Shown in pieces: positions 1,481-40,617 of a stretch of DNA of 46,048 nucleotides; the stretch's first letter is position 1; every line of letters starts with the position of its first letter. The notes beneath the pieces are model-generated. The model ran no database searches. It saw only the letters and a list, made by a program, of their open reading frames with translations, and was not told the origin of the DNA. The stretch is from contig CAYWSV010000003.1 of assembly GCA_964460155.1 (NCBI GenBank), positions 1 through 46,048 on the forward strand, read 5' to 3'. This stretch comes from an uncultured Oligoflexia bacterium (lineage in GTDB: Bacteria; Bdellovibrionota_B; Oligoflexia; Silvanigrellales; Silvanigrellaceae). Position numbers and translations under genes: made by a program.

Positions 1481-1633
1481 TTTGGTCTTAAACAATAATG
1501 AAGTGAGAAGAAAAGCTCCTCGACGTGATTTCTCTAATGACCCGTAATCAAAGATATTAACAAACAATCATTCAGAAATTCATGGGCGTATTCGATATCT
1601 CCTATGGCGATACCCATCCACGGGAGTTTATCT

Positions 1634-3781: not shown

Positions 3782-3846
3782 AGACCGGTTCAATATCGGT
3801 GCGCTGTCCAATGGAGAATCGTGAGGGTATCGAAAGGGGCAGGAAG

Positions 3847-5544: not shown

Positions 5545-7134
5545 ATGCTTGCAAACGAATTGTCTGCGTCTGCCTACGAGTGGCTTTCGCGCGTGACTTA
5601 TGGCGTCAATGACGAGCTCACCGCGCGTTTCACAAAACTTGGGCCTGATGATTTTAAGCGTTGGCAGGCCTACGTGCAGGACCAACTCAATCAAACTTCA
5701 TTTCTTGATTCGGCGGTCGAAAGTCGAATAGAAAAAATGTCTCTCAAAACCCTCGGACAAAATCTACCACAGCTTTGGACCAATCATTTTTTGGCGAGTC
5801 GAAAAATGAGTCGCATGACCGCTCGTGATTCATCAATGCCGCTCACCTCCGACGAAGAGAAAAAAAGTAGGCGCGCACGACGCGAGGTTGCTCTCGAGCC
5901 CGTTTATGATCTCGAGGCCGCAAGCTGGATTCGGATTGTCTATAGCCCCTTCCAAATCTTCGAAAGGATGGTTGAGTTTTGGCATGATCATTTCAATATT
6001 CATGCGTATGAGGGACGTGTTGCTCCTGCATTTCTTATTCTGAACAGAGACGTTATCCGCACACATGCCCTTGGGAATTTTCGTCAGCTTCTTGGTGGAG
6101 TCTGCAAAAATCCGGCGATGTTGGTTTATTTGGACAATGCGTTCAACCAAAGCGGAAATCCGAATGAAAACTTCGCCCGTGAGCTTTTTGAGCTTCATAC
6201 ACTGGGTGCAGAGAATTATCTCGGAACATTGGATCGAGACAAAGTAAGACGCGATAAAAACAACGTGCCCGAAGGCTACGTTGATGGAGATGTTTATGAG
6301 GCTGCACGTGCATTCACGGGCTGGCGCGTTGAAGATGGAACTTATGGACTATCTGCAAACACTGGGCAATTTATATACTCTGAGATGTGGCATGATCGTT
6401 TTCAAAAGGTCATTCTTGGTAGGAAGTTTTCTGAACATCAACCTCCTTTGAAGGATGGCGAGGATGTTCTGGATTTATTGTGCTCCCATCAGGGAACCGC
6501 GCGTTATATTGTTCGTAAGATGTGTCGAAGGTTTATTTCTGACACGCCCCCAGAAAGCCTTATTCAATCAATCTCGGTGTCTTTTCTGAAGCGGAAGGAT
6601 TCTCCAACACAGATTCGCGATACACTTTCGGACATTCTTAATTCTCAGGAATTTATCTCAAACAAGAGCAGGAAATTTAAACGTCCCGTGGATTATTTCG
6701 CAAGCTTGCTGCGCTCTTCTGCGTCGACATTCGAGACAACAGACAAGTTTGTGAATAGCGTCAATCGGTGTGGACATCGTCTCTTTGGCTGGAAAACACC
6801 CGATGGTCCGCCCGATGAGGCAACGCCTTGGCAATCGCCCCAGAGTCTAATTGAGCGCTGGAAAGTCGCTCAACAGATTCTGTCATCGCAAATTATTGGC
6901 TGTGAAGTCGAACTCAGAGCGTCGAAAGACCCAGTCACACCCGAAGGGCTCGCATCTGAGGTTGGTCGTCGGCTTCTTGGTCCTCGCATGAGTGAGGTCC
7001 TCCGTGCACAACTTGTTCAACGAGCTGCAGGCGGACGACGTGTTGATATGGATTTACCCGAGCAGCTACTGCCTGCCCGTGCCGTTCAAATCGCAGAGCT
7101 TGTTGTCATGAGCCCAGAGTTTCAGTTGAGGTAA
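5545..7134 (+). CDS. DUF1800 domain-containing protein
   Basis: The FWHDHFN and ELHTLG motifs are typical of DUF1800. The gene is immediately followed by its usual DUF1501 partner. Confidence 0.75.
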   Translation: MLANELSASAYEWLSRVTYGVNDELTARFTKLGPDDFKRWQAYVQDQLNQTSFLDSAVESRIEKMSLKTLGQNLPQLWTNHFLASRKMSRMTARDSSMPLTSDEEKKSRRARREVALEPVYDLEAASWIRIVYSPFQIFERMVEFWHDHFNIHAYEGRVAPAFLILNRDVIRTHALGNFRQLLGGVCKNPAMLVYLDNAFNQSGNPNENFARELFELHTLGAENYLGTLDRDKVRRDKNNVPEGYVDGDVYEAARAFTGWRVEDGTYGLSANTGQFIYSEMWHDRFQKVILGRKFSEHQPPLKDGEDVLDLLCSHQGTARYIVRKMCRRFISDTPPESLIQSISVSFLKRKDSPTQIRDTLSDILNSQEFISNKSRKFKRPVDYFASLLRSSASTFETTDKFVNSVNRCGHRLFGWKTPDGPPDEATPWQSPQSLIERWKVAQQILSSQIIGCEVELRASKDPVTPEGLASEVGRRLLGPRMSEVLRAQLVQRAAGGRRVDMDLPEQLLPARAVQIAELVVMSPEFQLR

Positions 7135-7142
7135 CTCGATCT

Positions 7143-8399
7143 ATGTCACTGAGCTTGAAACGAAGAGAATTTCTACTTGGTCTGGCTGGTGGTGTGACTT
7201 CAGTTGTGCTGCTGAAATCCCTCGAAGAAACTGGGGTTTTGAACTCCGCTGCACGAGCTGATTTGGTCGAAAGAAGCCGCAACGTTCTTTTGGTCGTGTT
7301 CCTGCGCGGGGGGTTCGACGGACTGAGTTTAGTGTGCCCAGTTCAAGGGCAAGATCGACGTGATTATGAATCAGCTCGACCTACCCTTGCGCTGCCGTTG
7401 ACTGGCGAGGGTGCCGCTTTAAAACTCGACGAGCAATTCGCTCTGAATTCTGCAGCGAAACCTCTTCATGGATTGTTTCTTGAAAAGAGACTTGCATTCA
7501 TTCAGTCCTGCGGTTTGCCCATCCCATCTCGCAGTCATTTTGCTGCTCAAGCTCTTATGGAATTGGGTGTGAGTCGAACAGGGGCTGACAACCGTGGTTG
7601 GTTGACTCGATTTATGGCTCAGCATCCATCCAAGGCTGCTGTCATCGGTCCGCTACGTCCTACGTCCTTGCAAGGTGCAGACAACATTATGGCCTACAAT
7701 CGGCTCAGAGGGCTTGGGCTTGAAGGCACTCCGCAGCAACAAATTCAACTGCGAAGCGCGTTACGGAGCTTGTATGCTCAGCAGGGTCAAGCTGGGGGAT
7801 ATGGACTGACCGCGCTCAACATGCTCGATGAATTGGAAGACATCTCATTAAAAATGGGGACAAAAGATAAAACTGAACTTCCATCGGGCGAAATAGCTCA
7901 GAAATTTGCAATTGCGTCACAGCTTTTGCAGCGAGACTCCAAGTTACAAATTATGACACTTGATATTGGTGGATGGGATACCCACAGACAGCAAGGCAGT
8001 AACGACGATGGTTACTTTGCCAAACAGCTTGCGAATCTTTCACGTGCGCTTGTCGATTTCCAACAGCACAGTTTGACGAGCAGTAATGCATGGGTGACGA
8101 CTGTGGTGATGAGCGAATTTGGTCGGCGAGTCAAAGAAAACAGCAATCGAGGAACAGATCACGGCCACGGCAATATTATGATGGTTGCTGGGCCACGCGT
8201 GCGCGGTGGACAACTTTTGGGTCAGTGGTCTGGACTTTCGAACGAGAAACTTTTTGAGCGCGCCGACCTCGCTGTGACAACTGATGTTCGTGTTGTGTTG
8301 CATAAGTGTATTCAGGCTCTGGCCCCACAGGTCAATTTGAAGTCTGTTTTTCCTGATGCTGAATTAGGAACATCAGCTCTGTCGGATCTTCTGATTTAA
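7143..8399 (+). CDS. DUF1501 domain-containing protein (sulfatase-like fold) with a Tat signal
   Basis: The N-terminus KRREFLLGLAGG is a twin-arginine signal. The motifs GGWDTH, SEFGRR and TDHGHG match those recalled for DUF1501. Confidence 0.8.
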   Translation: MSLSLKRREFLLGLAGGVTSVVLLKSLEETGVLNSAARADLVERSRNVLLVVFLRGGFDGLSLVCPVQGQDRRDYESARPTLALPLTGEGAALKLDEQFALNSAAKPLHGLFLEKRLAFIQSCGLPIPSRSHFAAQALMELGVSRTGADNRGWLTRFMAQHPSKAAVIGPLRPTSLQGADNIMAYNRLRGLGLEGTPQQQIQLRSALRSLYAQQGQAGGYGLTALNMLDELEDISLKMGTKDKTELPSGEIAQKFAIASQLLQRDSKLQIMTLDIGGWDTHRQQGSNDDGYFAKQLANLSRALVDFQQHSLTSSNAWVTTVVMSEFGRRVKENSNRGTDHGHGNIMMVAGPRVRGGQLLGQWSGLSNEKLFERADLAVTTDVRVVLHKCIQALAPQVNLKSVFPDAELGTSALSDLLI

Positions 8400-23622: not shown

Positions 23623-24162
23623 TCATGGATTCAAAATTGGAATGACATGAACGCCGGTAGCCGCAGTCACAGATGCTGCAAGGCATCTGCATTGCTGGTA
23701 GCTTCTTGAGCCATCGTCGACCTTCAGTTTAAAGAAATTCGGCTTTGTTGCACTCAACCATCCGCGTGACTCTGCCTTTTGTTTGAAGACCTCGTTTAAA
23801 TTTGCAGGAGCAACAACAAAACCGCATTTTTCTTTGATGGTGCTCGAGTTTAAGTTTGAAGTGGAAAGCGGCGCAACCGATGTTTCCGTCGCAGTAGCGA
23901 TATGGTTCAGTAGTTCCGAGCTAAGGTCTGCAGAACTGATTGCAGCAGTCGTTTGGTTGTCGGAATATATTTCATCACTCGATTCTACCGAATCACCCTT
24001 CGATTTTTCAGAAACTGCGTCTGAATTTTTCAATTTGACGGTGACAATTGGCTGCGCGATTGGTGGTTGATTTGAGCAAGCGAGAACGAAAAAGAGTATG
24101 ACAACTGATGTTGCTGTTGATATCGCTTTTGAGGTGTAGATTTTTTTTGTCAGGTTTGTCAT
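23623..24162 (-). CDS. Hypothetical lipoprotein
   Basis: The lipobox is VVILFFVLACSNQ. The gene starts 7 nt downstream of the S8 protease gene stop, so the two are likely co-transcribed. Confidence 0.55.
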   Translation of the reverse strand: MTNLTKKIYTSKAISTATSVVILFFVLACSNQPPIAQPIVTVKLKNSDAVSEKSKGDSVESSDEIYSDNQTTAAISSADLSSELLNHIATATETSVAPLSTSNLNSSTIKEKCGFVVAPANLNEVFKQKAESRGWLSATKPNFFKLKVDDGSRSYQQCRCLAASVTAATGVHVIPILNP

Positions 24163-27175: not shown

Positions 27176-27237
27176 GAATGTATAGGCGGCGGGGAAATAT
27201 TGATTCCGCGACAGTCTACACGAAGAAGGAGCTCCTC

Positions 27238-28263
27238 ATGAGAAATATCATTTTCTTCCCACTTTTTTCACTTATTCTTCAGGCTCAAGGCTGTGGTGCA
27301 AAGGACGCCAAGAATGCCATTTCGAAAATTGCCTCCGAGAATCAGTTTGAGTTCGGAGCACAGGCCACGAGCGAAGCCGTCAGTGCAGCAAGCGCCGGTG
27401 ATAGCGAAGGAGCATCAGGGTTCAGTTTGTCTTTGGCTGACAGTGGTAGTCCCTTTAAATCGGTGACTAGGACGTGTGTTGTGCAGCCCGACAACTCTGC
27501 GCTTGTAACTGTCTCCTCTGAAATCAATGTGGACAAGTCGAATTCGTCAGCGAATATATCTCGCACAAACAAGATCTCGGGGACGAGCACTGAAAGTCGT
27601 GTATGGAGTCACCCTTCGGGTGTTCAATGCGCAAATAGCGAACGTGCAAAATTAAATTTGAAAACGGACGCAGCGTCCTACGGACTCAAGGTCAAGATCG
27701 AGCGCTCGCGTCAGCAAACCATGTCGCAGACCAACCTAAAAAAGAATTCGACTGTTTCCTCGTCACGATCATTTTCGATGTCCGGAGAGCGAGTTATTCA
27801 GGTGATTTCCTACAGCGAGGATACTGCAAATGGTGTGTCACTGCAGGAGAAGAAAATCTCAGGCAGTATGAATCGTAATTTTACATTCATCGACAAAAGT
27901 GGGCAGTCTCAGTCGGGCAGTTTTTCAACGACAACCGTTGGCGATCCTATGGTTGTGAAGGTGAAACGTTCGATCTCATCAAAAGAAGTCGTGTCGCGCG
28001 AGATTGTTTCGGGTGCCCGCAGGAGCACGCTCGCCGATGGTTCTGTCATTGAGCTTGGCTTCAGCAATTTCGTGATGACTGGAGCGGGAGAAAGTTGTGA
28101 GGCTCAATCGGGAAGCGTTTCGATTAAATACTTAGATTCTGCTGGAGCAGTCAGTAGATCTGTTCAATGCGCTGCAGACTCTGGTTTACTCTCCTGCACC
28201 GACGAGAGTGGTGCGGCGGTTGAGATTGAAAGCCCTTCGTGCGATCCCGCGGATGACAAATAA
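27238..28263 (+). CDS. Hypothetical Ser-rich lipoprotein
   Basis: The ATG follows a GAAGGAG RBS. The lipobox is FSLILQAQGCG. I recognise no family. Confidence 0.6.
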   Translation: MRNIIFFPLFSLILQAQGCGAKDAKNAISKIASENQFEFGAQATSEAVSAASAGDSEGASGFSLSLADSGSPFKSVTRTCVVQPDNSALVTVSSEINVDKSNSSANISRTNKISGTSTESRVWSHPSGVQCANSERAKLNLKTDAASYGLKVKIERSRQQTMSQTNLKKNSTVSSSRSFSMSGERVIQVISYSEDTANGVSLQEKKISGSMNRNFTFIDKSGQSQSGSFSTTTVGDPMVVKVKRSISSKEVVSREIVSGARRSTLADGSVIELGFSNFVMTGAGESCEAQSGSVSIKYLDSAGAVSRSVQCAADSGLLSCTDESGAAVEIESPSCDPADDK

Positions 28264-28357: not shown

Positions 28358-28379
28358 CTATTTGTTGTCGGAGTGGTTC

Positions 28380-29054
28380 ATGAGATTGTTGAGTCTCGTT
28401 GTCTTGGTCATGTTTTCAGTAGGCTGTAAAGTAAAAGCGGTTGATGAGAGCGACCCGCAGACACTTAATGCAAGCTATGGCCGCAAGAAGATTTTTCTTT
28501 GGAATAAACGCGTCAAATCATCATTTGATTCAATTCAGCGCAGTTGTTGGTACTACAAAGAGGTTTCACCGAGTCTTGGTCTTTCTGACAATGACGCGAT
28601 GCTCACCTCATCTAAACTGAACGAGTATGCGATTCATGACGGGCATATTCAAAAGCAACTTCAAAATATCGTTAAAGAGAAGCTTATCAACATGGGGGCC
28701 GAATTTGTTCCCTGTGGTTTGGCGACAGTTTCGGTCGCTGCCGCAATCGCGTCTGGCGGGGCATCAGCAATCGCTTTTGGAGTCAGCTCCGCGTGGATGG
28801 CAAACAATTGCATTAAGAATTCACTTAATATTGCACGCTATGCAAAAGAGTTTAGAGGCACCTCTGAGGGCATCGCTTCACTGGAAACAAATGAAACACT
28901 TTTAGGAACTATATTCCCTGCGAGTAAGGCGGAAACAGATATTTTTCGTGAGGCAATTCGTCGAGCCCGACAGTTAGGACTGGAAGACAAAGTCGCTTGT
29001 CCGAAGGCAACTCAATTTGCAGCCGAAATTAAGTCGCAGAAGCATTCCCGATAG
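28380..29054 (+). CDS. Hypothetical lipoprotein with an internal Gly/Ala-zipper hydrophobic segment
   Basis: The ATG follows a GGAG RBS and the lipobox is VMFSVGC. The segment CGLATVSVAAAIASGGASAIAFGVSSAWMANNC is flanked by Cys residues. Confidence 0.6.
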   Translation: MRLLSLVVLVMFSVGCKVKAVDESDPQTLNASYGRKKIFLWNKRVKSSFDSIQRSCWYYKEVSPSLGLSDNDAMLTSSKLNEYAIHDGHIQKQLQNIVKEKLINMGAEFVPCGLATVSVAAAIASGGASAIAFGVSSAWMANNCIKNSLNIARYAKEFRGTSEGIASLETNETLLGTIFPASKAETDIFREAIRRARQLGLEDKVACPKATQFAAEIKSQKHSR

Positions 29055-29097: not shown

Positions 29098-30816
29098 TTA
29101 ATTGAAGATAATTGTTACACTGCCGGGCTGTCCGCTTCCGCCGGTGCCTGCGGAATAGTGTGGATCGTTTCGATTGACTGCGAGTGCACCTGTCGATGAA
29201 CCGTTACTACCGTTCATAGAAACGCGGCTTGTCGTATTTGGATGAAGAAATCCAGAACCACCGCCACCACCTGAGCCCGTGCAATTGCCCGAGGTCACAT
29301 CTCCAGAGCCCCCAAGCCCACCATAAAACCCAGCCCCCCCGCCTCCGCCTCCGGTGCCCTGATTTGTGATTCTTCCGCCGCCTGAGCAGCCATGGGATTT
29401 CTCGGTCGACCAAATAATGTTGTTACAGCCACCAATGAGCGTTGCTCCGCCGCCTCCAGAAATTCCGCCCGCAGCAGACATTTCGCCCGCTAAACCAGAA
29501 GAATTTCCGCCTCCGCCACCACCGCCTGAACCCGATTGTCCAGCACCGCCTCCGCCGCCGGCCATAACAACGAGGTCATTGTCATAATAAACTGAGGATG
29601 ATTGTCCTCCGGGACCCGCACCAAATTCAGAGAGTCCGACTGGCGATCCAGACGTTGAATCACCAACCAAAATGATTATCTCTTTGTTCTCTGTCACCGT
29701 TAGCGTTCCCTGTGCATAGCCTCCGCCTCCACCGGATCGAACCCCAGATGAGCAGCCGGCGTTGTTTTCCCCTGTCCCGTCGCCACCAGCGCCCCAGACT
29801 TTAACTGTGATTGCTGTTGTGCCGTTTGGAACCAGCAATGAATACCGACCAGCGATGGAAAATGTTTTTGGTGACTTGTCTGATGGGAGAGCGTTAAAAA
29901 GAGGAGAGACGAGCGTTCCGTTTGCCATTTTGACCGATAATTTAAATGAATACCTTCCACCAATAGCGAAGGGGCTCTGTGACAAATCAAATGCACACTT
30001 CGACACCGACGCAGCAGAAAAAGCACCTGTCGTTGAAGAACTCTGGATTCTGTCACTGCAGCTTTCGAAACCTTGAAACACGGTTGCCGAAGCTGGTAAT
30101 TTTTGTGGATCTCCATCCCACGCAGAAATCTCTCTTTCTGCAGATGATTTTCCTGCAATAATTGTAATGATTCCAGACTGTGTTTGTGCATTTCCCCACA
30201 TAAATTGAGCGCGGCCTTCTGATCCGTTGAACTGAACATCTCGCCAGATTTCAATTTGAGTTGAGCTTGAACCTGTCGGTGTTGGCAGTGAGACTGTTGT
30301 GAGTGCCGGCTTATCAGAAGGTCCTGCATTAATGATGCTGTCAGTTAAAAGTATTCCGATGCGTCTTGTGAGTTCACGAACTTCTGCACCTGCACTGCGC
30401 GCGGCTTCGATGAGGGGTGCAATGTCTGTTGGAATAACCCACTGAGTACTGAGTTCCTTGTTAGCGACATTGATCTTGAGCGTGGGCACACTCTCTGGGA
30501 TTTTGCTGACAGGAACAGTGAATTCACCTTGGTCATTTGTTTTTGTCTTGTAATCTGTTTCCACAACGGTAACCGAGGTTTGCTTTGCGCGACTGCCGTC
30601 AGGTAAATTTAAAACCCCCGTAAGGAAAGAACCTGCAACGGGCACGGGTGGAATGACGGTGTCTCCGACAGTTGGGTTTTTTGGGGGCGTCGACGTTCCT
30701 TCGGCAATTGGCTTTTTGGATGGTGTCATCGTTCCAGTGCGAAACGTAGCCGCGCCCCCACACGAACCGGTGAGGATCGCATTCGAAAGAAGAAAAATTT
30801 GAGTTTTCAACTTCAT
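29098..30816 (-). CDS. Lipoprotein with a CarboxypepD_reg-like domain and a C-terminal glycine-rich domain (bacterial Gly_rich / ALK-LTK GRD-like)
   Basis: The lipobox is ILTGSCGG. SFLTGVLNLPDGS...TNDQGEFTVPV resembles a carboxypeptidase-regulatory fold. The C-terminal ~255 aa follow the pattern VKVWGAGGDG...GGGGGYAQGTLTV...IIILVG...VMAGGGGGAG...GGGGGGAGFYGG...GGGGGSGF, which is typical of the glycine-rich-protein family. Confidence 0.65.
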   Translation of the reverse strand: MKLKTQIFLLSNAILTGSCGGAATFRTGTMTPSKKPIAEGTSTPPKNPTVGDTVIPPVPVAGSFLTGVLNLPDGSRAKQTSVTVVETDYKTKTNDQGEFTVPVSKIPESVPTLKINVANKELSTQWVIPTDIAPLIEAARSAGAEVRELTRRIGILLTDSIINAGPSDKPALTTVSLPTPTGSSSTQIEIWRDVQFNGSEGRAQFMWGNAQTQSGIITIIAGKSSAEREISAWDGDPQKLPASATVFQGFESCSDRIQSSSTTGAFSAASVSKCAFDLSQSPFAIGGRYSFKLSVKMANGTLVSPLFNALPSDKSPKTFSIAGRYSLLVPNGTTAITVKVWGAGGDGTGENNAGCSSGVRSGGGGGYAQGTLTVTENKEIIILVGDSTSGSPVGLSEFGAGPGGQSSSVYYDNDLVVMAGGGGGAGQSGSGGGGGGGNSSGLAGEMSAAGGISGGGGATLIGGCNNIIWSTEKSHGCSGGGRITNQGTGGGGGGAGFYGGLGGSGDVTSGNCTGSGGGGGSGFLHPNTTSRVSMNGSNGSSTGALAVNRNDPHYSAGTGGSGQPGSVTIIFN

Positions 30817-30823
30817 GTTGCCA

Positions 30824-31678
30824 TCAATAACCCTTATTTATGGTTGCTATGTCTCCGGGACTGAAGTGAAATATTTTTGAATTGAGTTCCGGGTTATATT
30901 CTTCACGACTCGTTGCGAATCTGCAGTAGTTCATTATCGAGTTTCTATCGTATGGCGTGACAGCACGAGCGTCCTGAGGCAGTCCTGGACGACGCAGGTC
31001 TTCATTAAAAAGGTCGCACTCGCTTTCGGGATGCGCATGCTCATGGCGCAGACCCACAGCGTGTCCGAATTCGTGAAGCGATGTAGATAATGCATAATTC
31101 ATGCGGCCTTGTGGAGTTAGCTTATTCAGGCGCGCGACAGCTCCGCTGTGTCTTCCGAGTCCTGATGTGTTAAGAACGATACCGTGCGCATCGCCTCTCA
31201 AGAATTTTCCCCAATCGCGAACTCTGGGATTCCCCGGCCTGTCTCCAAACGACATCTTTGCAGCAAGGCTTTTGTTCGATTTGAGCAGAGATTGAAACGC
31301 AGGGTCATCGTAGACGACCACTCCAATATCAAACTGTCCGTTCAGTGAATCACAATTTTTCCATCCTTTTTGAATCCGCAAGCGCTGAGTGTTGGCAAAG
31401 TTGGTAATGACATGATTTTCGACATCCTTCCGAAATTCTGCCTGCGAGGAATGGCTCGACGACCAGCAGACCACGAGCGGTTTGCCTGATTGCCACAGTG
31501 TAGATTGCTGAACGAGAACTCCCTGAGCTCCAGCGTCTGTGCTAGAGGCGCCCTCGGGCTGGGCTTTACCGCCCAATTTTCCACATGCGACGACCCAACC
31601 TGTCACAAGGACCGAAGTGCTCACCAAGAGATTCCTCTTGCTCCGTTGGCTTTTATTTAACAATATAAAAAGATTCAT
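30824..31678 (-). CDS. Astacin-like (M12A-type) zinc metalloprotease lipoprotein
   Basis: HEFGHAVGLRHEH fits HExxHxxGxxHE, including the astacin-specific Glu, and the Met-turn is SIMNY. The lipobox is GWVVACG. The stop is 7 nt upstream of the glycine-rich lipoprotein gene. Confidence 0.75.
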   Translation of the reverse strand: MNLFILLNKSQRSKRNLLVSTSVLVTGWVVACGKLGGKAQPEGASSTDAGAQGVLVQQSTLWQSGKPLVVCWSSSHSSQAEFRKDVENHVITNFANTQRLRIQKGWKNCDSLNGQFDIGVVVYDDPAFQSLLKSNKSLAAKMSFGDRPGNPRVRDWGKFLRGDAHGIVLNTSGLGRHSGAVARLNKLTPQGRMNYALSTSLHEFGHAVGLRHEHAHPESECDLFNEDLRRPGLPQDARAVTPYDRNSIMNYCRFATSREEYNPELNSKIFHFSPGDIATINKGY

Positions 31679-31788
31679 GTTATTCCCCGATTAAATCTGC
31701 GGAATTTACTGCAAGAACGAGTATCGGAGTTTGGCCAAAATCACTGAAGAGTGTGCGTGAGCCGAGAATTAAGTCCCCAAAATGATTA

Positions 31789-31821
31789 GGGCCGAGGATC
31801 CTAATGAAGGATCCTCGGCCC
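31789..31821 (-). terminator. Perfect 13-bp hairpin, the probable terminator of the 31861..32406 gene
   Basis: The hairpin is gggccgaggatcc-taatgaa-ggatcctcggccc. It lies 40 nt downstream of the stop, and a U-run follows on the minus strand after a 7-nt gap. Confidence 0.5.
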
Positions 31822-31860
31822 TTTGCAGTTTGTAATCTAAGACTACAAGCTAGGTGTCAC

Positions 31861-32406
31861 TCAGTACGGACACTCGCAGATGCTTTGCGGATAACACACA
31901 GTGCCATTGGGTCCCGCGCTGCATCGGTTTTCGACGCGACAAACGGGCCAGCGGCCTTCATAGCGGGTTGTGATAGCCACAGGGAATTTGAACGACTTGA
32001 CTTCAACAACGCGTCCGCCGTCGGAGTAGGTCACTTCAAAATCATTCATGCCTTCTGCAACAGAGAAGTATCTTTGGCCATGGTGCGAGCGTGGGAAGAA
32101 ATCGATTTTTTCCGAGCGTCCACCCGACTTATACTGGCGGTCGGTGTATGGATAAGGGTCGTTCGACATGCCGGGAGTCACGTTGACAATGCGCACACGG
32201 CGGCCTTCGACTGTAGGCATTTCGGGATCAAAAAAGTAACCGCGCACAGGCTCAAGACGTGAACCAGGACAAGCGCCGGTGAAGACCACGTTCTCCATGA
32301 GAATTGCATCTGTCCGAGGACCCGTAGGTGTATCGGTCACGAAGCCGGGAGAAGCAAAAGCAAAACTCGAAACCAATCCTGCAACCAAAGCAACAAGGCG
32401 TGTCAT
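31861..32406 (-). CDS. Hypothetical secreted protein with a Cys-rich C-terminus
   Basis: The ATG at 32406 follows a GGAGG RBS. MTRLVALVAGLVSSFAFA is a signal peptide. I recognise no family. Confidence 0.55.
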   Translation of the reverse strand: MTRLVALVAGLVSSFAFASPGFVTDTPTGPRTDAILMENVVFTGACPGSRLEPVRGYFFDPEMPTVEGRRVRIVNVTPGMSNDPYPYTDRQYKSGGRSEKIDFFPRSHHGQRYFSVAEGMNDFEVTYSDGGRVVEVKSFKFPVAITTRYEGRWPVCRVENRCSAGPNGTVCYPQSICECPY

Positions 32407-32713
32407 GGGCACCTCCAAAGTGTTCACGTCGACTGTGCTGTCGGGCGTAGCACTCGTCTGACCGCGTTTCAATGAAAAAAAACAGAGTCTAAAAAGAAAC
32501 AACTTCAGGTCTGAAAGCGTATTAAAATCCCAATAAAACCGGTGTGATAAAAGCGCGCCAAACGCGAAGCGTCAATCACTGTCCAACATGGTTTAGGGCA
32601 ATATTCTTGGCATGTCCCCTCCGATCATCTCGGGCTATCTTTGATCAACCGAAAACCGAACTAAAAATCCAGTTGAGCTGCCTACAGAGTCGTTGAATGC
32701 GGAGGCCAGAATC

Positions 32714-35224
32714 ATGATACGCATGCTTTCCATAATTTCAGTACAATTTGTGCTGATTTTTGCACTGACTGCCTGCAAAAGAACGCAAACGGCCTCGGTT
32801 CAAAGCGAAATCTCGGGACCTATCATTCTTCCCTCTGAGAATCCCATCGTCCTCACACAGGTTGGGCAAGCGGCAATCAACAATGCTGCCGACATTATAA
32901 AGACGAGCACTGATGTGATGCTCTACAATCAAGATCATAAATTTAAGCCCGTCGATGTGATTATCGACCCCGATGGCAGCGAGCACGTGCGCTTTCACAG
33001 AACCTACAAAGATGCTCCTGTTCTTGGCGGCGACCTTGTAACGCATCGTCTTAAGAACGACCCATCGAAACGCATCAGTGTTGCATCATCAAATATTATT
33101 GATGTCGACGTCACTGAATTGGTCTCAAAGGAACGCGCAACTCAAATAGCGTCGGCTGCATTTCAGGGAAAGTATGTAGGCACGCGTTCAGCACGGAAAG
33201 TTATTTTTAATGCGAAACAGGAGCCGCGAGTTGCCTGGGAAATTATCCAATCGGGAGTTTCGGCCAGAGGATTAATGATCGAAAAAAAGATCTTCGTCGA
33301 CGCGCGCAGAGCGATTGTGTTGGCACAATGGGATCATCTTCAAAGTGTGGCCGCGCAGGGCCAAGGCTTTCACTCGGGAACCGTGAATCTCAATGTCACA
33401 GCATCGGGCTTACAATTTCTTCTTAAAGATTCAACGAGAGGCAATACACTCACAGGTGACTTGGTGCAGACCGAGAGCGCTGATGTTCCACCTCCAGTGA
33501 GTTCTCCGACCACACTGTTTGGCGATGGAAATTTGAATCCAATGAGCCTTGCCGTAGATGCTCAATTTGGTGCGTCTATCACGTGGGATTACTTTTTAAA
33601 TATTCACAGCCGCAAGGGAACAAACAACGACGGGCGCGGAGTCAAATCGCGTGTTAACTATGGAGTCAACTATGGCAACGCGTTTTATGACCCGCTGTGC
33701 GATTGCGTGACCTATGGTTCCGGCGACGGGCAATTCCTAAATGCCACCACGGCACTGGATGTCGTTGCACATGAAATCAGTCATGGTCTGACAACTCATA
33801 CGGCCGACCTTCTCTATTGGAGCGAATCAGGCGGTCTGAATGAAGCAACGAGCGATATTTTTGGAGCTATGGTTGAGTTCTATGCGAATATTCCAAGTGA
33901 CCCACCTGACTATATTTTAGGAGAAAAAGTTGTTGTTCGAGAGACTCTGGGCGAAGGCCTGAGGTTCCTGTACAACCCAAATCTCGATGGATTTTCTCCC
34001 AATTGTTACACCGATGCAGTCGCAGACATGGAGGTCCATTCATCATCGGGCATCGGGAATCATTTCTTTTATTTGCTGGCAGAAGGATCTAATCCAGCTT
34101 CACCACTTCCTCCTTCGCCAACCTGCAACAACTCTCAGCTCAACGGCATAGGTCGGCAAAAGGCGGCGCGAATTTGGTATCGAGCGCTGGTCACCTACAT
34201 GACCTCGACGACAGATTATCGGGGAGCGCGCTTGGCGACGATTAGAGCTGCAAACGATTTGTTTGGCAAAGCCTCGCCTGAATCGACAGCTGTGGCTTCG
34301 GCTTGGGCCGCTGTTGGTCTAAACTCAAATTTTAAAATTGAAGCCATTCCGGATCAGATGATTCAAACTGGAAAGCGGCACTCAATCGAGATTGTTGTTC
34401 AAAACGCTAAAGAAAATTGCGCAACCGAGCTCAAGGTGACGTCCAGCAACAAAGAACTTATTCCCCAGTCAGGTCTTGTGGCTTCACGTTTTGCTCCAAG
34501 TTGTCTGCTCACAATTCAGCCTGTGGCGAATAAGCGCGGGCAGAGCACAATCACATTGAACTATGGTCAAGGCGAAACAGCGGTCAGTCAGAGTTTTCTC
34601 GTCACCGTTGCAGACATCAACGTTCCTCCTCAAATCACCAACATTCCTGATCAGTCTATTCAAGAAGACACGACTTTGAATGTGAACGTGAAAGTATCCG
34701 ACAAAAATGACCCGCTGAATTGTGCAAAGAATTTGGATGCAACTTGGGACAACCCTGCACTTTTGGATCCACGCGGATTATCGTTCCGCGGAACCGCTCC
34801 TCATTGCACTCTTGTTTTGCGTCCTTATCCGAACGCAAACGGAAAGACCAAGGTGACGGTGACTGTAAAAGACCCAAGTGATGCAGCAGCAACAGATTCA
34901 TTTAATCTGACCGTTGTACCGGTCAACGATGCTCCGAATATCCTCTCCATCAAGGACCAGAGGTTGTTATCGAGCACGACGCTTATCGTGAGTTTGAAGG
35001 TTGTCGATGTCGATAATCAAATACAGTGTGCAGCAGTTAAGGCTACGAGCTCGAATCAGTCGATTGTCAAAAACAGCTCATTAACGGTTTCCGGAACTGC
35101 GCCCAACTGTCTTCTCAAGATTGTACCGCTGAAAAATGGAAACGGTGCGACCGTAATTAAGCTTGATGTCACAGATGGAAAACTCAAAGGCACCAGAAGT
35201 TTTAAGGTGAATGTGACCCGCTGA
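32714..35224 (+). CDS. Thermolysin-family (M4) zinc metalloprotease lipoprotein with three C-terminal cadherin/Ig-like repeats
   Basis: The ATG follows a GGAGG RBS and the lipobox is IFALTAC. The catalytic motifs are VVAHEISHG (HExxH) and GGLNEATSDIFG (the third zinc ligand Glu). The C-terminal 300 aa form three repeats of about 100 aa. Confidence 0.85.
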   Translation: MIRMLSIISVQFVLIFALTACKRTQTASVQSEISGPIILPSENPIVLTQVGQAAINNAADIIKTSTDVMLYNQDHKFKPVDVIIDPDGSEHVRFHRTYKDAPVLGGDLVTHRLKNDPSKRISVASSNIIDVDVTELVSKERATQIASAAFQGKYVGTRSARKVIFNAKQEPRVAWEIIQSGVSARGLMIEKKIFVDARRAIVLAQWDHLQSVAAQGQGFHSGTVNLNVTASGLQFLLKDSTRGNTLTGDLVQTESADVPPPVSSPTTLFGDGNLNPMSLAVDAQFGASITWDYFLNIHSRKGTNNDGRGVKSRVNYGVNYGNAFYDPLCDCVTYGSGDGQFLNATTALDVVAHEISHGLTTHTADLLYWSESGGLNEATSDIFGAMVEFYANIPSDPPDYILGEKVVVRETLGEGLRFLYNPNLDGFSPNCYTDAVADMEVHSSSGIGNHFFYLLAEGSNPASPLPPSPTCNNSQLNGIGRQKAARIWYRALVTYMTSTTDYRGARLATIRAANDLFGKASPESTAVASAWAAVGLNSNFKIEAIPDQMIQTGKRHSIEIVVQNAKENCATELKVTSSNKELIPQSGLVASRFAPSCLLTIQPVANKRGQSTITLNYGQGETAVSQSFLVTVADINVPPQITNIPDQSIQEDTTLNVNVKVSDKNDPLNCAKNLDATWDNPALLDPRGLSFRGTAPHCTLVLRPYPNANGKTKVTVTVKDPSDAAATDSFNLTVVPVNDAPNILSIKDQRLLSSTTLIVSLKVVDVDNQIQCAAVKATSSNQSIVKNSSLTVSGTAPNCLLKIVPLKNGNGATVIKLDVTDGKLKGTRSFKVNVTR
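34334..35221 (+). repeat. Three tandem protein-level repeats of about 100 aa (cadherin-like) in the M4 protease
   Basis: Each unit begins I(P/K)DQ, carries a conserved Cys pair (...C(A/T)... and AP(S/H/N)C(L/T)L) and an N(K/A/G)(R/N)G(Q/K/A)(S/T) turn, and ends F.(V/L)(T/N)V...(V/N)(P/D)(P/A)(Q/N)I. Confidence 0.7.
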
Positions 35225-35684: not shown

Positions 35685-37421
35685 TCAGCGGGAGCCTAAG
35701 CCCGCTGTACGCTCTTTTCGGAGTGCTTTAATCTCGTCAAGTGCCGAACGAATTTCATCGGACTCTGCACCACCCATTCCAAGCTGTTTCTCGCGTATTC
35801 TCAGCGCACGTTCAAGTTGGTCTTGAGCAGAGTTGAGATTGAGACCTGTCGAGAGTTCGAGACGACCCGAAATGTTCAAAAACGTCGCCTCCCATGCAAT
35901 GAGTCCCGATTCCTCAGCAACCTTTAATGCATTTGCTAAAACAACACGAGCCCGTGGAGCGTCGTTCGTTTCAAGTAGAGATGTGACGTAAAGGTGATGA
36001 GCTTCGCACATCAGGAAACGTTCATCAGGGAAATCTGCAAGCGCATTGATGGCGATGCGAAAGAGAGGAAGAGCGGAGTGCACGCGTCCACATTCGCGGT
36101 ACGACAAAGCGAGTTGGAAAGATTCCATCGCAGCAGCAACGAGATCTTTTGAACTCATTTCGAATATCCTTTGTTGCTGCGCTTTAATGCTTTCATCGCT
36201 GCAATCTATTTCACTCTCTTCGGCCATCGGCGGAAGCCAAGCTGGCAGCGGATCTTCAAAAGTGGCCCACAAGCTCTCGCCCAGTTTCAGTTCGGAATCG
36301 GTTAGAAGGCACGCATTCAGTTTTTTGCGCATGTCGTCGTGGTCCATGTTTTGACCAATCACCACGAATTCCTGACACCGGTCGCCCCATTGGCTATCCC
36401 ACTTGGCTTCAACCTCGAGACGCTCCTCTGGAGAGAGAACCCAATCCTCGCGTGGAGTCAGAGCAAGCCAAACTCCTGCGGGCTCCATGCGAATGCTCCC
36501 CCCTGCTTGACCCCATTGAGTGACAAAATCTGAGCGTGTAGCGAGCCAAATGAATCCTTTTGAACGCACAACGGTCTCTGACTGATTCTCAAAGAAATCG
36601 GCAAAACGAGCGGTATGAAAGGGTCGTGCAGCGCGGAAAACAAAGCTTGAAAATCCGTATTCGTCTTTTTCAGATGTCTCCGCTCCACGCATGGTTTTGA
36701 GCCACCCGGGCGCCTGTGAGGCTTTTTCGAAATCAAAAAGACCGGTGTTGAGAATATGCTGAAGTTCAACTTTCGAATTCGTGGTTGGAAGCACAACGGC
36801 TTCAGGGTTCAAGGTCCGAACGAGACCCACGACATCTTTAAGTTCCTCGTTCGAAACAAGGTCGGCTTTGTTGACGACGACAACATTCGCAAATTCAACT
36901 TGGTCCGTGAGGAGGTCTGATAAATTGCGTTCGTCTTCGTCATTGAGAGCTTGCCCTGCTTCAGCGAGAAGCGCCGCCTCTTGAAACTGCCGCTTGAAGT
37001 TAAATGCATCAACGACAGTGACCATTGTGTCGAGTCGGGCAAAATCAGAGAGTGATTTGCCGTCATCGTCCGCAAAGGTAAACGTTTCGGCAACGGGAAG
37101 TGGCTCCGAGATTCCTGTGCTTTCGATGACCAGATAGTCGAAGCGTCCGTCTTGAGCGAGACGTTTGACCTCGATGAGTAGATCTTCGCGAAGCGTGCAG
37201 CAGATGCAGCCGTTGCTCATTTCAACCAATTTTTCTTCAGTGCGCGCGACTCCCACAGCACCCGACTTCACCAGTTTCGCATCAATGTTGAGTTCGCTCA
37301 TGTCATTCACGATGACCGCGACCTTGAGGCCGTGTGGTTGGTTCAGAATGTCATTCAACAAGGTCGTCTTTCCTGCTCCAAGAAAACCGGAAAGAACTGT
37401 CACTGGAAGTTTGTTTATCAT
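35685..37421 (-). CDS. COG0523-family (CobW/ZigA/YeiR-like) metallochaperone GTPase with an extra C-terminal helical-repeat tail of about 180 aa
   Basis: The P-loop is GFLGAGKTTLLN, the metal motif is GCICCTL, and NKADL is present. A CobW_C-like region ends at WATFEDPLPAW, followed by a TPR-like tail. Confidence 0.8.
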   Translation of the reverse strand: MINKLPVTVLSGFLGAGKTTLLNDILNQPHGLKVAVIVNDMSELNIDAKLVKSGAVGVARTEEKLVEMSNGCICCTLREDLLIEVKRLAQDGRFDYLVIESTGISEPLPVAETFTFADDDGKSLSDFARLDTMVTVVDAFNFKRQFQEAALLAEAGQALNDEDERNLSDLLTDQVEFANVVVVNKADLVSNEELKDVVGLVRTLNPEAVVLPTTNSKVELQHILNTGLFDFEKASQAPGWLKTMRGAETSEKDEYGFSSFVFRAARPFHTARFADFFENQSETVVRSKGFIWLATRSDFVTQWGQAGGSIRMEPAGVWLALTPREDWVLSPEERLEVEAKWDSQWGDRCQEFVVIGQNMDHDDMRKKLNACLLTDSELKLGESLWATFEDPLPAWLPPMAEESEIDCSDESIKAQQQRIFEMSSKDLVAAAMESFQLALSYRECGRVHSALPLFRIAINALADFPDERFLMCEAHHLYVTSLLETNDAPRARVVLANALKVAEESGLIAWEATFLNISGRLELSTGLNLNSAQDQLERALRIREKQLGMGGAESDEIRSALDEIKALRKERTAGLGSR

Positions 37422-37443
37422 GAGAGTCGCCTTTACTTACGGA

Positions 37444-38028
37444 TTACAGAGTCACTGCACCGGAGTCTTTTTTGATGGTTGTTCCACTTTGCTTGTCGCC
37501 TGAAAGCACCTGAACGTTCAGAGTTTTAAGCGCCTTAAAAACCTGAGTCACAGCAAATTTCACTGAAGTTCCGGCAACTGGTTTGCCGCATTCGAATTTA
37601 AATGTGGCGTGGACCTCGCTGTGCGTGCCTTTTTTGTGCGAATGCTTCTTGGATTTGTTGTTTTCTTTTGCAGGTTCGTCGTCTGTGACGAAGGGTTTCA
37701 CATCTGTGCTGACGACCTTGCAATTGAGCGCTGGATCAAGAACAAACATTTTGTCTGCGTTCAATTTTAGCTTCTCGACAGCTTCGTCACGCTTTTTAAT
37801 TTCTTCTGGTTTTTTTGCTTCGTGTTCAAATCCATAAATACCATCGGAAGGACTTTCGAGCGCAATTGTGACCGTATTGCCTTCGCCCACAATATTCACC
37901 TGTGCTTTGCCGTGCTCGTGCGCTTTGTGGCCCTTTCCACCTGCAAACGCCAGTGAGGGTGCAACAACGAGACAAAGAATTGCGGTCTCCATTACGCGCG
38001 CCGATTTCGTTTTTAGCGTGTGTTCCAT
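37444..38028 (-). CDS. DUF2796 / ZrgA-like periplasmic zinc-uptake protein
   Basis: It has a signal peptide and the motifs HKAHEHGKAQV...GFEHEAK...HSHKKGTHSEVHATFKFEC. The layout matches DUF2796 as I recall it. Confidence 0.65.
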   Translation of the reverse strand: MEHTLKTKSARVMETAILCLVVAPSLAFAGGKGHKAHEHGKAQVNIVGEGNTVTIALESPSDGIYGFEHEAKKPEEIKKRDEAVEKLKLNADKMFVLDPALNCKVVSTDVKPFVTDDEPAKENNKSKKHSHKKGTHSEVHATFKFECGKPVAGTSVKFAVTQVFKALKTLNVQVLSGDKQSGTTIKKDSGAVTL

Positions 38029-38054
38029 GACTGCTTAATCCTCCATGAATGGAA

Positions 38055-38070
38055 TGATAATGAATTATCG
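38055..38070 (-). promoter_or_regulatory. Candidate Fur-family (Zur) operator 2
   Basis: TGATAATGAATTATCG on the plus strand is identical at 13 of 16 positions to the box at 42406..42421. It lies 27 nt upstream of the DUF2796 start and contains a possible -10 (TATCAT) on the minus strand. Confidence 0.4.
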
Positions 38071-38934
38071 CTAGTGCTGATTTATAGCTCCGTCAAGCCT
38101 TTCTTTCCGGAAAAAAGTTGAACAAATTGAAAGTGCTGCCGTCGAAAAACAGATAATCGGCACTGTGGGTAGATGCGGGAGTCCCAGAGAGGCGAGCATT
38201 CCCAAAGGGGCACCGAGTGCGGCGCAAATGATACACAGACGAATGTGTCGCCGCGCTCCTGATGTTGGACGAAGCGCAAGGAGTGTTGTGGGCAGAAAAA
38301 GCAGAGCGCACGTCAATAGGAAACCGGTTGCCCAAGTGCTCATCGCGATTAAGGCGATGAAAAGAATATGATCCCGCACCGCATGGCTTTTCGGGTGTCT
38401 CAACATCAGTTCTTGGCGAAAGGTTGAATGCATAATCTTATCTTTATTTCGCCACGACAGCAGAATAAAAAGAACGCAGGCAGTTGAAATTATCAACAGG
38501 TCGATATTGGTTAACGTCGAAACATCGCCAACAAGAGAGCGTGCAAAATGCGCTTCGAGAGTTGGCTGGCTTGCAATCAAAATTTGTGTACTTGCGAACA
38601 GGAGTATCCAAAGAGCAAAAAGAGCATTTCCTTTTGTTTGATCCATTCGACTTTGAAAACGAGCAGCCAACCATCCACCTGTGAGAGCTCCTCCGCATGC
38701 ACCAACAAGGCTCGTGATTACAGTTCCGGCAGAGCTCTCAAGACCCATGTAAAAAACCAAAATAAACGTAAGCAGGCTCCCGATTTCCGCACCCTGAGAG
38801 GTGTTCAGGCTCAGGAGGGTCTTCTCTCGCGCTGCGAGATGTGCCCCGGAATAAGAAAGCGTCGCCGCCAGCACCGCGAGGACAGGCAGACTCCAACCGT
38901 AGACTTTCAAGATCTCAGTAAAGGTCATTGTCAT
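38071..38934 (-). CDS. Metal ABC transporter permease (ZnuB/ABC-3 type)
   Basis: It is a 287-aa polytopic membrane protein. Its start overlaps the ATPase gene stop by 4 nt. The family is assigned mainly from context and topology. Confidence 0.6.
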   Translation of the reverse strand: MTMTFTEILKVYGWSLPVLAVLAATLSYSGAHLAAREKTLLSLNTSQGAEIGSLLTFILVFYMGLESSAGTVITSLVGACGGALTGGWLAARFQSRMDQTKGNALFALWILLFASTQILIASQPTLEAHFARSLVGDVSTLTNIDLLIISTACVLFILLSWRNKDKIMHSTFRQELMLRHPKSHAVRDHILFIALIAMSTWATGFLLTCALLFLPTTLLALRPTSGARRHIRLCIICAALGAPLGMLASLGLPHLPTVPIICFSTAALSICSTFFRKERLDGAINQH

Positions 38935-39623
38935 GTGTCTTTCTTTGAAACTCGACGGTGGTCACGTTGATTCGGTTTGAGTGTGAGGGTGATGCATGTC
39001 TCGCCCAGCTGTTCCGAAAGCAGGGGTGTTTGATTGTGCGACACAAGAAAAAGCGTTTTTTTGACAAAATTGCTCTTAAGACTGTGATCGAGAATTGCGT
39101 GTTCGATAGCTTCTGAGGCTATTTGGTCGAGATGATTGAAGGGCTCGTCGAGGAGAAGAACTTCTGCACGACTGCGCAAGGCTCCTGACATGAGCGCGCG
39201 CATGCGCTCTCCTCCACTCGCATTGTTCCACATGATGCTTTTCGTTGTTTCAGGAAACCAAGGTTGGTCTTGAGTTGGTATTAACTCATCTGTTGTCGCA
39301 TCTTCTTCTTGGATCTTCTGGGTTGTCATTGATAGGAGCTGGGCAACTTCGGCGAGAGAGTAGGGAAGTAAAGTTTTGGGCGCATGAAGTTGCGAAAGCA
39401 GAAGAGTTCGTTTGGGGTTTGGTTGGAACTTTACTGTTCCAGAAAAACTTTGCTTTTGCCCATTGAGAAAATCCAGAAAGCTAGATTTTCCTATGCCATT
39501 GATGCCAGAAATTAGAACCACTTTGCCAAAGGGAATATGAATGCTTATGGGTTCAAAAAGCATGCGTCCGTTTTTGAACAGGGAGAAGTTTTCACACTCA
39601 AAGACAACTCTGTCTTGTGTCAT
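38931..39623 (-). CDS. Metal ABC transporter ATP-binding protein (ZnuC-like, divergent)
   Basis: Walker A is GINGIGKSS, the signature is ASGGERMR, Walker B is VLLLDEP and the H-loop is VSHN. Confidence 0.75.
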   Translation of the reverse strand: MTQDRVVFECENFSLFKNGRMLFEPISIHIPFGKVVLISGINGIGKSSFLDFLNGQKQSFSGTVKFQPNPKRTLLLSQLHAPKTLLPYSLAEVAQLLSMTTQKIQEEDATTDELIPTQDQPWFPETTKSIMWNNASGGERMRALMSGALRSRAEVLLLDEPFNHLDQIASEAIEHAILDHSLKSNFVKKTLFLVSHNQTPLLSEQLGETCITLTLKPNQRDHRRVSKKDT

Positions 39624-39630
39624 GACGAAC

Positions 39631-40599
39631 CTACTTGGTGTTTTTGACAGAGGTGTTAGAAGAGTCGATGATTTGGTCGACTATTCCTGTGAGAAGATTT
39701 CTATATGCGTCCTTGTCTGTGAATGATGTCATTGATACCGGAACGATCTGAACTTTCACGCCGCTGAGTTCTTCAAATTTGCGTGCAACAGATTTCGACG
39801 CATGAGTCGATGCAAGAACAGTTCGTATATTTTCTTTCCTGACAAGATCCGCCACTTTAACAAGGTGTGGTGCCGAGGGCTTAATACCGGGTTTGTCTTC
39901 AATCTCAGCTGCGGATTGCAAGCCAAGACTTTGAGCGAGATAATTAAATTCATTATGGTATTGCACGAAACGAGCCTTTTCTTTCGTCACTCCTGCCTTT
40001 TCGAGTTTCTTTTTGAGGTCCTCCTCAAGCGAGCTCATCGTTCTCTTAAGTGCTTCGTAATTCGCTTGAAAGATTTCACGGTTCTCTGGCCGCAGTGTGT
40101 TCATAATTAACAGAACTTCTTGCGCAGCATGCGCAAACGTTTTGGGGGAAAGCCAGAAATGTGGATTTCCGTTGGGGTGCACGTCTCCCATGCTTCTGTC
40201 GACGCGACCTTGTGGTTTGTTCAATGGCTCAACTTTTCTTCCCAATTCGCAGTGGCCAGTTCCACCGGGTTGGATTTGTTTTCGTCCCGTCTTCTTGAGA
40301 ACTTTGGGCATCCAGCCCAATTCCAAATCAAGACCAACAACACAGACGATATCTGCCTTCATGAGGCGTGAAACGTAGTCGGGCCTCACGTCTACAAAAT
40401 GCGGATCCTCTCGACCCGAGAGCAGGCTATTGACCTCTACGCGATCGCCCCCAATCTGGCTGACAACCCATGCAAGATCTGTTGTTGAAGTCACAATATT
40501 GAGGCGCTGGTTCGCATCCGCTCGCTGAAATGGAAATAAGGTCCACAGAAAAAGAATCGTAGGCATGATTCGGATGGAAGATGCGAGAGAGTGTTTCAT
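39631..40599 (-). CDS. Metal ABC transporter substrate-binding protein (ZnuA/TroA cluster A-I)
   Basis: IVTSTTDLAWVVSQIGGDRVEV...REDPHFVDVRPDY...KADIVCVVGLDLE matches the ZnuA/TroA N-lobe pattern. I prefer the ATG at 40599 over the TTG at 40605. Confidence 0.75.
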   Translation of the reverse strand: MKHSLASSIRIMPTILFLWTLFPFQRADANQRLNIVTSTTDLAWVVSQIGGDRVEVNSLLSGREDPHFVDVRPDYVSRLMKADIVCVVGLDLELGWMPKVLKKTGRKQIQPGGTGHCELGRKVEPLNKPQGRVDRSMGDVHPNGNPHFWLSPKTFAHAAQEVLLIMNTLRPENREIFQANYEALKRTMSSLEEDLKKKLEKAGVTKEKARFVQYHNEFNYLAQSLGLQSAAEIEDKPGIKPSAPHLVKVADLVRKENIRTVLASTHASKSVARKFEELSGVKVQIVPVSMTSFTDKDAYRNLLTGIVDQIIDSSNTSVKNTK

Positions 40600-40617
40600 T
40601 GGCAATGTCCGTAAATT

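Follow-up and report, generated by a model that had tools for sequence, protein, structure and literature searches.

Lineage-specific pairing of an astacin-like protease gene with a modular lipoprotein carrying a phage-related glycine-rich domain in an uncultured Oligoflexia bacterium

We analyzed a 46,048-nucleotide (nt) stretch of contig CAYWSV010000003.1 (assembly GCA_964460155.1) from an uncultured Oligoflexia bacterium, hereafter called the window, in which the gene of an astacin-like metalloprotease directly precedes that of a 572-aa lipoprotein ending in a glycine-rich domain (GRD). The genome is probably that of a protease-rich, predatory member of the Bdellovibrionota. A preliminary description of this DNA had interpreted the gene pair, together with a trypsin-like/glycine-rich fusion gene elsewhere in the window, as two occurrences of one protease/polyglycine functional unit. 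Its domain identities and the lipoprotein nature of the products held up in our analysis, the operon layout is plausible and the idea of a binding module fits the family, but the recurrence is not supported as the signature of a functional unit. Instead, we favor, with a probability of about 0.55, a reading in which the two genes encode separately evolving secreted lipoproteins that share an incidental two-gene operon in this lineage, the second being a modular adhesin with a phage-type tip.

Both genes are located on the minus strand, the astacin-like gene (30824..31678, 284 aa) upstream of the 572-aa lipoprotein gene (29098..30816). Both open reading frames (ORFs) were confirmed, as was the short distance between them: the stop codon of the first gene is separated from the ATG of the second by the 7-nt spacer TGGCAAC (30817..30823, minus strand). 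A GGGGA ribosome-binding site precedes the astacin ATG, and a convergent gene is found 43 nt past the end of the 572-aa gene. On the other side, a hairpin scan and inspection of the sequence revealed a terminator-like hairpin (31788..31822, minus strand; 10 GC pairs in a 15 bp stem) at the end of the upstream 213-aa gene, marking the 5' boundary of the probable astacin-GRD transcription unit. Because of this strong hairpin, the ribosome-binding site, the 7-nt gap and the convergent downstream gene, the two genes likely form a bicistronic unit, so that the operon proposed in the preliminary description is plausible from the layout. Such co-transcription may result in co-expression; nothing indicates an obligate partnership between the protease and the GRD protein.

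The C-terminal 255 aa of the lipoprotein (residues 318-572; 29098..29865 with the stop codon, minus strand) are an ALK/LTK-type GRD. This region contains 31% Gly, compared to 7.7% for the window proteome, and runs from 'ITVKVWGAGG' to 'GSVTIIFN', following the pattern ..VP.g.t.i..K.WGAGG.G, then GGGGG runs, then G.V.I.F that is found in the ALK/LTK TG domain (PF12810) and in its sister family PF21722. Tested in isolation, the domain aligned with Pfam Gly_rich_2 (PF21722) over the full profile length (E=0.005; 17.3 bits, under the 24.3 threshold) and gave no match to PF12810 in the Pfam profile search. The best Pfam family is thus PF21722 rather than the PF12810-like family first suggested. Although the window protein itself is under the gathering threshold, its relatives exceed it: two orthologues (P0002 and P0003) have precomputed PF21722 matches, and among two sets of relatives from a GRD-profile search, 20/45 and 21/62 matched PF12810 (ALK_LTK_GRD), while 13/45 and 23/62 matched PF21722. 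In addition, a phmmer search of 5.8 billion sequences recovered two PF12810 members, P0018 and P0019, at ~1e-4.

The fold comparison agreed with this assignment and with the kinship to ALK/LTK noted in the preliminary description. In the AlphaFold2 (AF2) model of the 572-aa protein, the mean predicted local distance difference test score (pLDDT) was 43, the GRD strands reaching 62-82 and the Gly-rich segments remaining below 50. Every one of the best 21 Foldseek matches of this model in the PDB was a TG domain of ALK/LTK (probability 1.0, E from 6.5e-7 to 5.9e-5), and the 22nd-ranked match fell to E=0.17; these values are to be read with the pLDDT of 43, TM-scores of 0.30-0.42 and an amino-acid score term that may gain from Gly content. 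With E≤1e-3, viral predicted structures (BFVD) gave 89 matches, the majority to tail and 'glycine-rich domain' proteins of Caudovirales, and the PHROG matches were phrog_7388 and phrog_863. A PDB sequence-profile search with the GRD alignment gave no match. Neither of the two Gly-rich modules of the window matched GenBank phages by tblastn, probably due to low-complexity masking, and a pattern scan of genome contigs seeded with the full GRD alignment returned 600 stretches matched on Gly runs, none of which was confirmed by tblastn. More generally, composition-bias filters mask true matches of Gly-rich domains, the HMMER composition correction penalizes Gly-rich queries, and precomputed Pfam tables disagree with live hmmscan on Gly-rich proteins. 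Compared to ALK and LTK, the window protein, a bacterial lipoprotein, lacks any kinase, MAM, LDLa or EGF context, its GRD forms the C-terminal tip, and this GRD has a Cys-flanked insert, GGCNNIIWSTEKSHGC, common to phage-type GRDs such as P0040.

The remainder of the protein, here called the N-module (residues 1-317; 29866..30816, minus strand), comprises a signal peptide with a lipobox cysteine (Cys19, invariant within S18-C19-G20), a Pro-rich linker, a CarboxypepD_reg-like beta-sandwich and more beta-rich sequence. It has no family match of its own in Pfam, and the AF2 model gives no predicted structure for it (pLDDT<50). When 1.84 billion representatives were searched by HMMER, the 202 matches fell into two classes, covering either the GRD only (residues ~310-571) or the N-module only (residues ~20-318). 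Among 40 proteins of the N-module class, CarboxypepD_reg was recognized in 8 and CarbopepD_reg_2 in 4, and the C-terminal domains varied widely (FG-GAP, Big_9, cadherin-like, Laminin_G_3, F5/8 type C, beta-helix, GRD); a peptidase domain was found in none of these 40 proteins. The GRD lipoprotein is a member of an uncharacterized modular family with a conserved N-module of ~300 aa and interchangeable tips. In the best reading of these data, the N-module, with its lipid anchor, Pro-rich linker, CarboxypepD_reg-like beta-sandwich and further beta domains, would act as a stalk exposed at the cell surface and bearing an exchangeable C-terminal tip, which in relatives may be cadherin-like, Ig-like, FG-GAP, ConA-like lectin, discoidin or beta-helix.

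In the window protein, the tip would be the ALK/LTK-type GRD, the nearest relatives of which are found at the tips of tail and baseplate proteins of tailed phages. With 45-54% identity and E-values as low as 1e-32, the closest GRDs beyond the orthologues are phage tail/baseplate-associated: those of P0005 and P0012 sit in baseplate/tail modules with GPW_gp25, Gp6-like, Gp5_OB and M23, and P0040, the closest stand-alone GRD, adjoins a weakly scoring Phage_tail_APC gene. The likeness to Caudovirales tail-fibre and baseplate proteins extends to 51 IMG/VR loci, to the BFVD fold matches and to the C-terminal position of the GRD, which is consistent with a receptor-binding role. Unlike these phage proteins, the window gene product has a lipoprotein signal and a bacterial N-module, and no phage structural genes are found nearby. 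The gene could nevertheless be a phage tail-fibre remnant or a recent transfer, without a cellular function of its own, as its nearest GRD relatives outside the orthologues are phage proteins and as a site that is otherwise syntenic may contain or lack the gene (see below). We consider this most improbable. The ORF is intact, its lipobox is conserved, proteins with 54-81% identity occur in two other assemblies, and the N-module belongs to a bacterial lipoprotein family with many non-phage tips. A prophage origin of the locus was rejected, with no phage genes in its neighborhood in the window, and composition gave no sign of a recent transfer, the GC content being unremarkable after correction for Gly codons.

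A second alternative assigns the GRD a structural or physico-chemical role, for instance as an ice- or surface-active polyglycine-II sheet or as a cell-envelope spacer. Polyglycine-II bundles also occur in antifreeze proteins such as that of the snow flea (PMC13243192), and the bacterial GRDs have no known ligand. Three lines of evidence make this alternative very improbable in our opinion: the fold match of the predicted model appears specific to the ligand-binding TG domain of ALK/LTK, the GRD takes the C-terminal position held by lectin, cadherin and discoidin domains in relatives, and phage GRDs sit in tail and baseplate proteins. The contexts of the family fit the earlier suggestion that the Gly-rich part is a binding module. 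By analogy with phage tail-fibre tips and with the mosaic adhesive trimer (MAT) fibres of Bdellovibrio, the most likely role of the lipoprotein would be the recognition of ligands or surfaces, for example of prey envelope components. In B. bacteriovorus, MAT fibres have conserved N-termini and swapped C-terminal adhesive tips that are kin to phage receptor-binding proteins; they are long trimeric beta-helix fibres, with a conserved domain, rich in beta structure and ~130 aa long, after the signal peptide and often an S74 chaperone/protease domain (PMC10769870). The GRD protein may thus be a functional counterpart of the MAT fibres, as both belong to predator families that combine a conserved N-terminal part with exchanged phage-like tips (PMC10769870), a likeness drawn from their descriptions only. 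On the same descriptive basis, they differ in that the window protein, of 572 aa, is a lipoprotein and contains a CarboxypepD_reg-like module.

The product of the upstream gene is a putative small astacin-like zinc endopeptidase (M12A-like metzincin), predicted to be lipid-anchored. The zinc motif HEFGHAVGLRHEH (HExxHxxGxxHE; residues 202-214, 31040..31075, minus strand) is invariant in the 284-aa protein and its two orthologues. The Met-turn SIMNY (residues 247-251, 30926..30940, minus strand), a variant of the SxMHY turn with its tyrosine zinc ligand, retains S, M and Y in the orthologues, and the lipobox cysteine is conserved (VVAC|G). The match to Pfam Astacin (PF01400) exceeded the gathering threshold (28.0 bits compared to 22.5) but spanned no more than 22 residues. 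In the PDB, a profile built from the three orthologues found myroilysin (E=1.5e-5 over ~80 residues) and BMP1/tolloid (2.6e-3). The zinc motif, the Met-turn and the lipobox agree with the original annotation as an astacin-like lipoprotein. The protein shares the HExxHxxGxxHE zinc site and the Met-turn tyrosine with bacterial astacin-like enzymes such as myroilysin, its best PDB sequence match, and Legionella LegP, for which the NCBIfam match was weak. However, the similarity to these enzymes is limited to ~80 residues around the active site, and the window protein differs from them as a lipoprotein with an N-terminal half devoid of recognizable match.

We then compared the surroundings of both genes in related sequences. 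The astacin-GRD adjacency is lineage-specific and is not a conserved pair. The only other instance, L001, comes from a fully syntenic close relative with flanking genes 84-98% identical and again a 7-nt gap; as one locus shared by two close relatives, it adds no independent evidence. In the metagenome-assembled genome (MAG) GCA_039799905.1 (L002/L008), the gene upstream of the astacin gene is 79% identical to window gene 31861..32502 and the astacin itself 54% identical, which identifies the site as syntenic, and no GRD gene is present there: the astacin gene is followed by a 135-aa ORF and then a methyltransferase gene. From the same two identities, the astacin evolves much faster than its upstream neighbor. 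This neighbor (31861..32502, minus strand) encodes a 213-aa Cys-rich protein without family match. Metagenome 3300035703 has unrelated ORFs of 144 and 128 aa, and no GRD gene, after its astacin orthologue (L005), and the N-module+GRD homologue P0052 (L180) is on a different contig. Upstream of the GRD orthologue in L007 (54% identical), no frame of the 245 nt available encodes an astacin C-terminus. The pair was not found in L002-L006 or in L007. Likewise, none of 33 astacin-like loci of species-representative genomes, mostly from Oligoflexales, Bdellovibrionales and Oligoflexia MAGs, had a GRD or N-module ORF within 6 kb, and the N-module relatives P0043 and P0046, flanked by TerC and PALP genes, have no protease in their vicinity. 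We propose that a site that is otherwise syntenic either gained the GRD gene downstream of the astacin gene here or lost it elsewhere.

A broader sample gave a similar picture. GRD loci were gathered with the less Gly-rich half of the domain (alignment of five sequences), yielding 51 viral (IMG/VR) and 79 metagenome loci. The 146 GRD genes in these loci formed 45 clusters at 70% identity, and genes within two positions of the cluster representatives were taken as neighbors; most of this sample comes from phage and marine contigs, and only three independent GRD loci are Bdellovibrionota-like. Among the 114 genes flanking the 45 representatives, at least one was a peptidase (M13), judged from the best 25 of 51 Pfam families, and several belonged to phage tail and baseplate families. 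Partner domains within the 45 GRD proteins were Ig, lectin, cadherin, EGF, T7-tail and S74-chaperone. When 62 diverse representatives were added to these 45, a protease domain was found in only 1 of 107 GRD proteins. With ~1% of GRD proteins fused to a protease and ~1% of neighbors being peptidases, there is no enrichment in this viral and metagenome sample, and the gene-neighborhood association expected from the preliminary description was not observed. In four metagenome contigs of the sample (L129, L163, L164 and L174), 3-4 consecutive GRD genes of ~490-670 aa each look like tandem paralogue arrays.

The window itself is dense in proteases: 4 peptidase genes (trypsin-like, S8, astacin and M4) are present among ~42 ORFs (~10%), so that ~18% of genes would have a peptidase neighbor by chance. 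Several observations weigh against an incidental pairing of the two genes. The single fusion among the 107 GRD proteins, P0122 (1540 aa), combines Peptidase_S8, P_proprotein and Ig domains with a C-terminal ALK_LTK_GRD. In L180, a convergent M48 peptidase gene adjoins the GRD gene. A peptidase is thus found beside the GRD gene at 2 of the 3 Bdellovibrionota-like loci (binomial P about 0.1 at a background of ~18-19%), which is not significant since ~10% of the genes in these contigs are peptidases; a loose protease-GRD association within the Bdellovibrionota is possible, from only three independent loci. In addition, identity between the window and L001 is lower for the astacin (86%) and the GRD protein (81%) than for flanking genes (94% for 27178..28263 and 98% for 28362..29054; the S8 peptidase is 91% identical), with only 23623..24162 (71%) below them. 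This pattern could reflect a shared selective pressure. Finally, the poor AF2 model (mean pLDDT 43, N-module unpredicted) counts against the proposed architecture of stalk and tip.

Some of these observations would rather support the original proposal, in which a functional unit is made up of a protease and a polyglycine module: the astacin would be docked or positioned by the GRD lipoprotein or would process it, and the trypsin-like/Gly-rich fusion would be the same solution reached by gene fusion. This proposal is also favored by the 7-nt gap and common strand of a bounded two-gene unit, by the retention of the pair in L001, by the conservation of the fusion in five proteins, and by the ability of both Gly-rich families to form ligand-binding polyglycine-II bundles (PMC13243192), in addition to the subtilase-GRD fusion P0122 and the M48 gene of L180. 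We nevertheless regard it as unlikely. The adjacency was absent from the syntenic site of L002, from L005/L180, from L007 and from all 33 astacin-like loci, so the pair is restricted to the window and L001; peptidases were rare among GRD neighbors (at least 1/114, from the best 25 of 51 families), and so were protease domains among GRD proteins (1/107); the peptidase partners differ in family and orientation; and a chance adjacency of ~18% is expected in such a protease-dense genome. Moreover, the two Gly-rich modules of the window are not detectably homologous, as detailed below.

The second Gly-rich region belongs to the gene at 1634..3781 (plus strand), which encodes a 715-aa trypsin-like/GP38-like lipoprotein. 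Its likely start is 1634, with the MKKTQFIRPLFLLAVIGCG lipobox, and not 1604 as in the ORF list; residue numbers below follow the 1604..3781 ORF (725 aa). The protein belongs to a five-member lipoprotein family (34-65% identity). At the motif level only, the His, Asp and Ser residues of a putative chymotrypsin-fold (clan PA, S1-like) triad occur in trypsin order, in YTALHC (H120), DVARIW (D182) and GESGSPV (S297), and are invariant in the five homologues; residues ~60-455 gave no protease profile or fold match in Pfam, NCBIfam, PHROG or PDB-sequence searches. The AF2 model of the 725-aa ORF, computed from 5 sequences, had a pLDDT of 34, with the putative peptidase part below 40, and Foldseek was uninformative; a PDB sequence-profile search with the family returned Gly-linker artefacts only.

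Its C-terminal Gly-rich module (2966..3781, plus strand; residues 455-725) resembles the phage GP38 family. Precomputed PF05268 (GP38) matches were present in all five family members (E≤1e-5 for P0039), and on residues 461-559 of the window protein PF05268 scored E=2.3e-4, at 21.5 bits under the threshold of 25 and only with the Gly run trimmed off. PHROG matches were phrog_10745 (8e-19) and the tail-fibre family phrog_11439 (1e-7). Alignment of the two Gly-rich regions by hhalign gave a probability of 1.6% over a 13-residue Gly run, and scores against the GRD hidden Markov model were negative. The module of the fusion protein is therefore best described as phage GP38-like on sequence grounds, with no detectable homology to the GRD, and the two regions, which the preliminary description had counted as two cases of one polyglycine module, belong to different families. 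Both the GRD-type and the GP38-type families do build polyglycine-II helix bundles (PMC13243192). As in phage Gp38 (PF05268; S16 gp38, PDB 6F45), tail-fibre family matches are obtained and the Gly-rich motifs come after a beta-rich attachment-like region. In contrast to Gp38, the window module is under the Pfam gathering threshold, occurs in a bacterial lipoprotein, joined to a domain with a putative trypsin fold, and has a long GGxGGxGG run instead of short Gly-rich motifs parted by hypervariable loops.

The last 10 nt of the fusion gene are shared with a 215-aa ORF (3772..4419, plus strand), whose product contains numerous Cys residues, is hydrophobic in an N-terminal segment and matches no family. 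This ORF is kept in the same position in L048 (12312..12953), with 53% identity compared to 34% for the fusion protein, and its product could be a partner, a chaperone or an inhibitor of the fusion protein. Directly downstream of this locus is a DUF1800/DUF1501 gene pair (5545..8399, plus strand). On the other side of the astacin region, an M4 thermolysin-like peptidase gene (32693..35224, plus strand), which also encodes an FTP propeptide and, at the C-terminus, Ig-like repeats in tandem (Big_9 / He_PIG / tandem-95), is transcribed divergently. The genes of both zinc metalloproteases (astacin-like and M4) are closely followed downstream by a zinc-homeostasis cluster (35685..40605, minus strand; CobW-type GTPase, ZrgA, ABC-3 permease, ABC ATPase and ZnuA).

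A bolder alternative would bring both Gly-rich regions together again despite their different families. Two phage modules of polyglycine-II type, both receptor-binding but unrelated to each other, might have been domesticated by predatory Bdellovibrionota and might direct secreted proteases to prey surfaces: the GP38-like module by direct fusion to a trypsin-like enzyme, and the GRD as part of a stalked lipoprotein that is co-expressed with an astacin and either recruits this enzyme or is matured by it. We regard this scenario as speculative and quite unlikely; if true, a protease combined with a phage-type Gly-rich tip would be a recurrent predatory weapon design.

Overall, we retain the interpretation of two separately evolving lipoproteins. 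Adjacency to a protease gene in protease-rich genomes is, without comparative support, no proof of functional pairing, and the trypsin-like/GP38-like fusion with its conserved partner ORF appears to be the better candidate for a true protease-plus-targeting-module design. To our knowledge, no bacterial ALK/LTK-type GRD has an assigned function. A receptor-binding role is supported here by the GRD being one of many interchangeable tips and by its closest relatives being found in phage tail proteins. The GRD lipoprotein is therefore a concrete candidate for the recognition of prey or substrate in a predatory lineage, in parallel to the MAT fibres.

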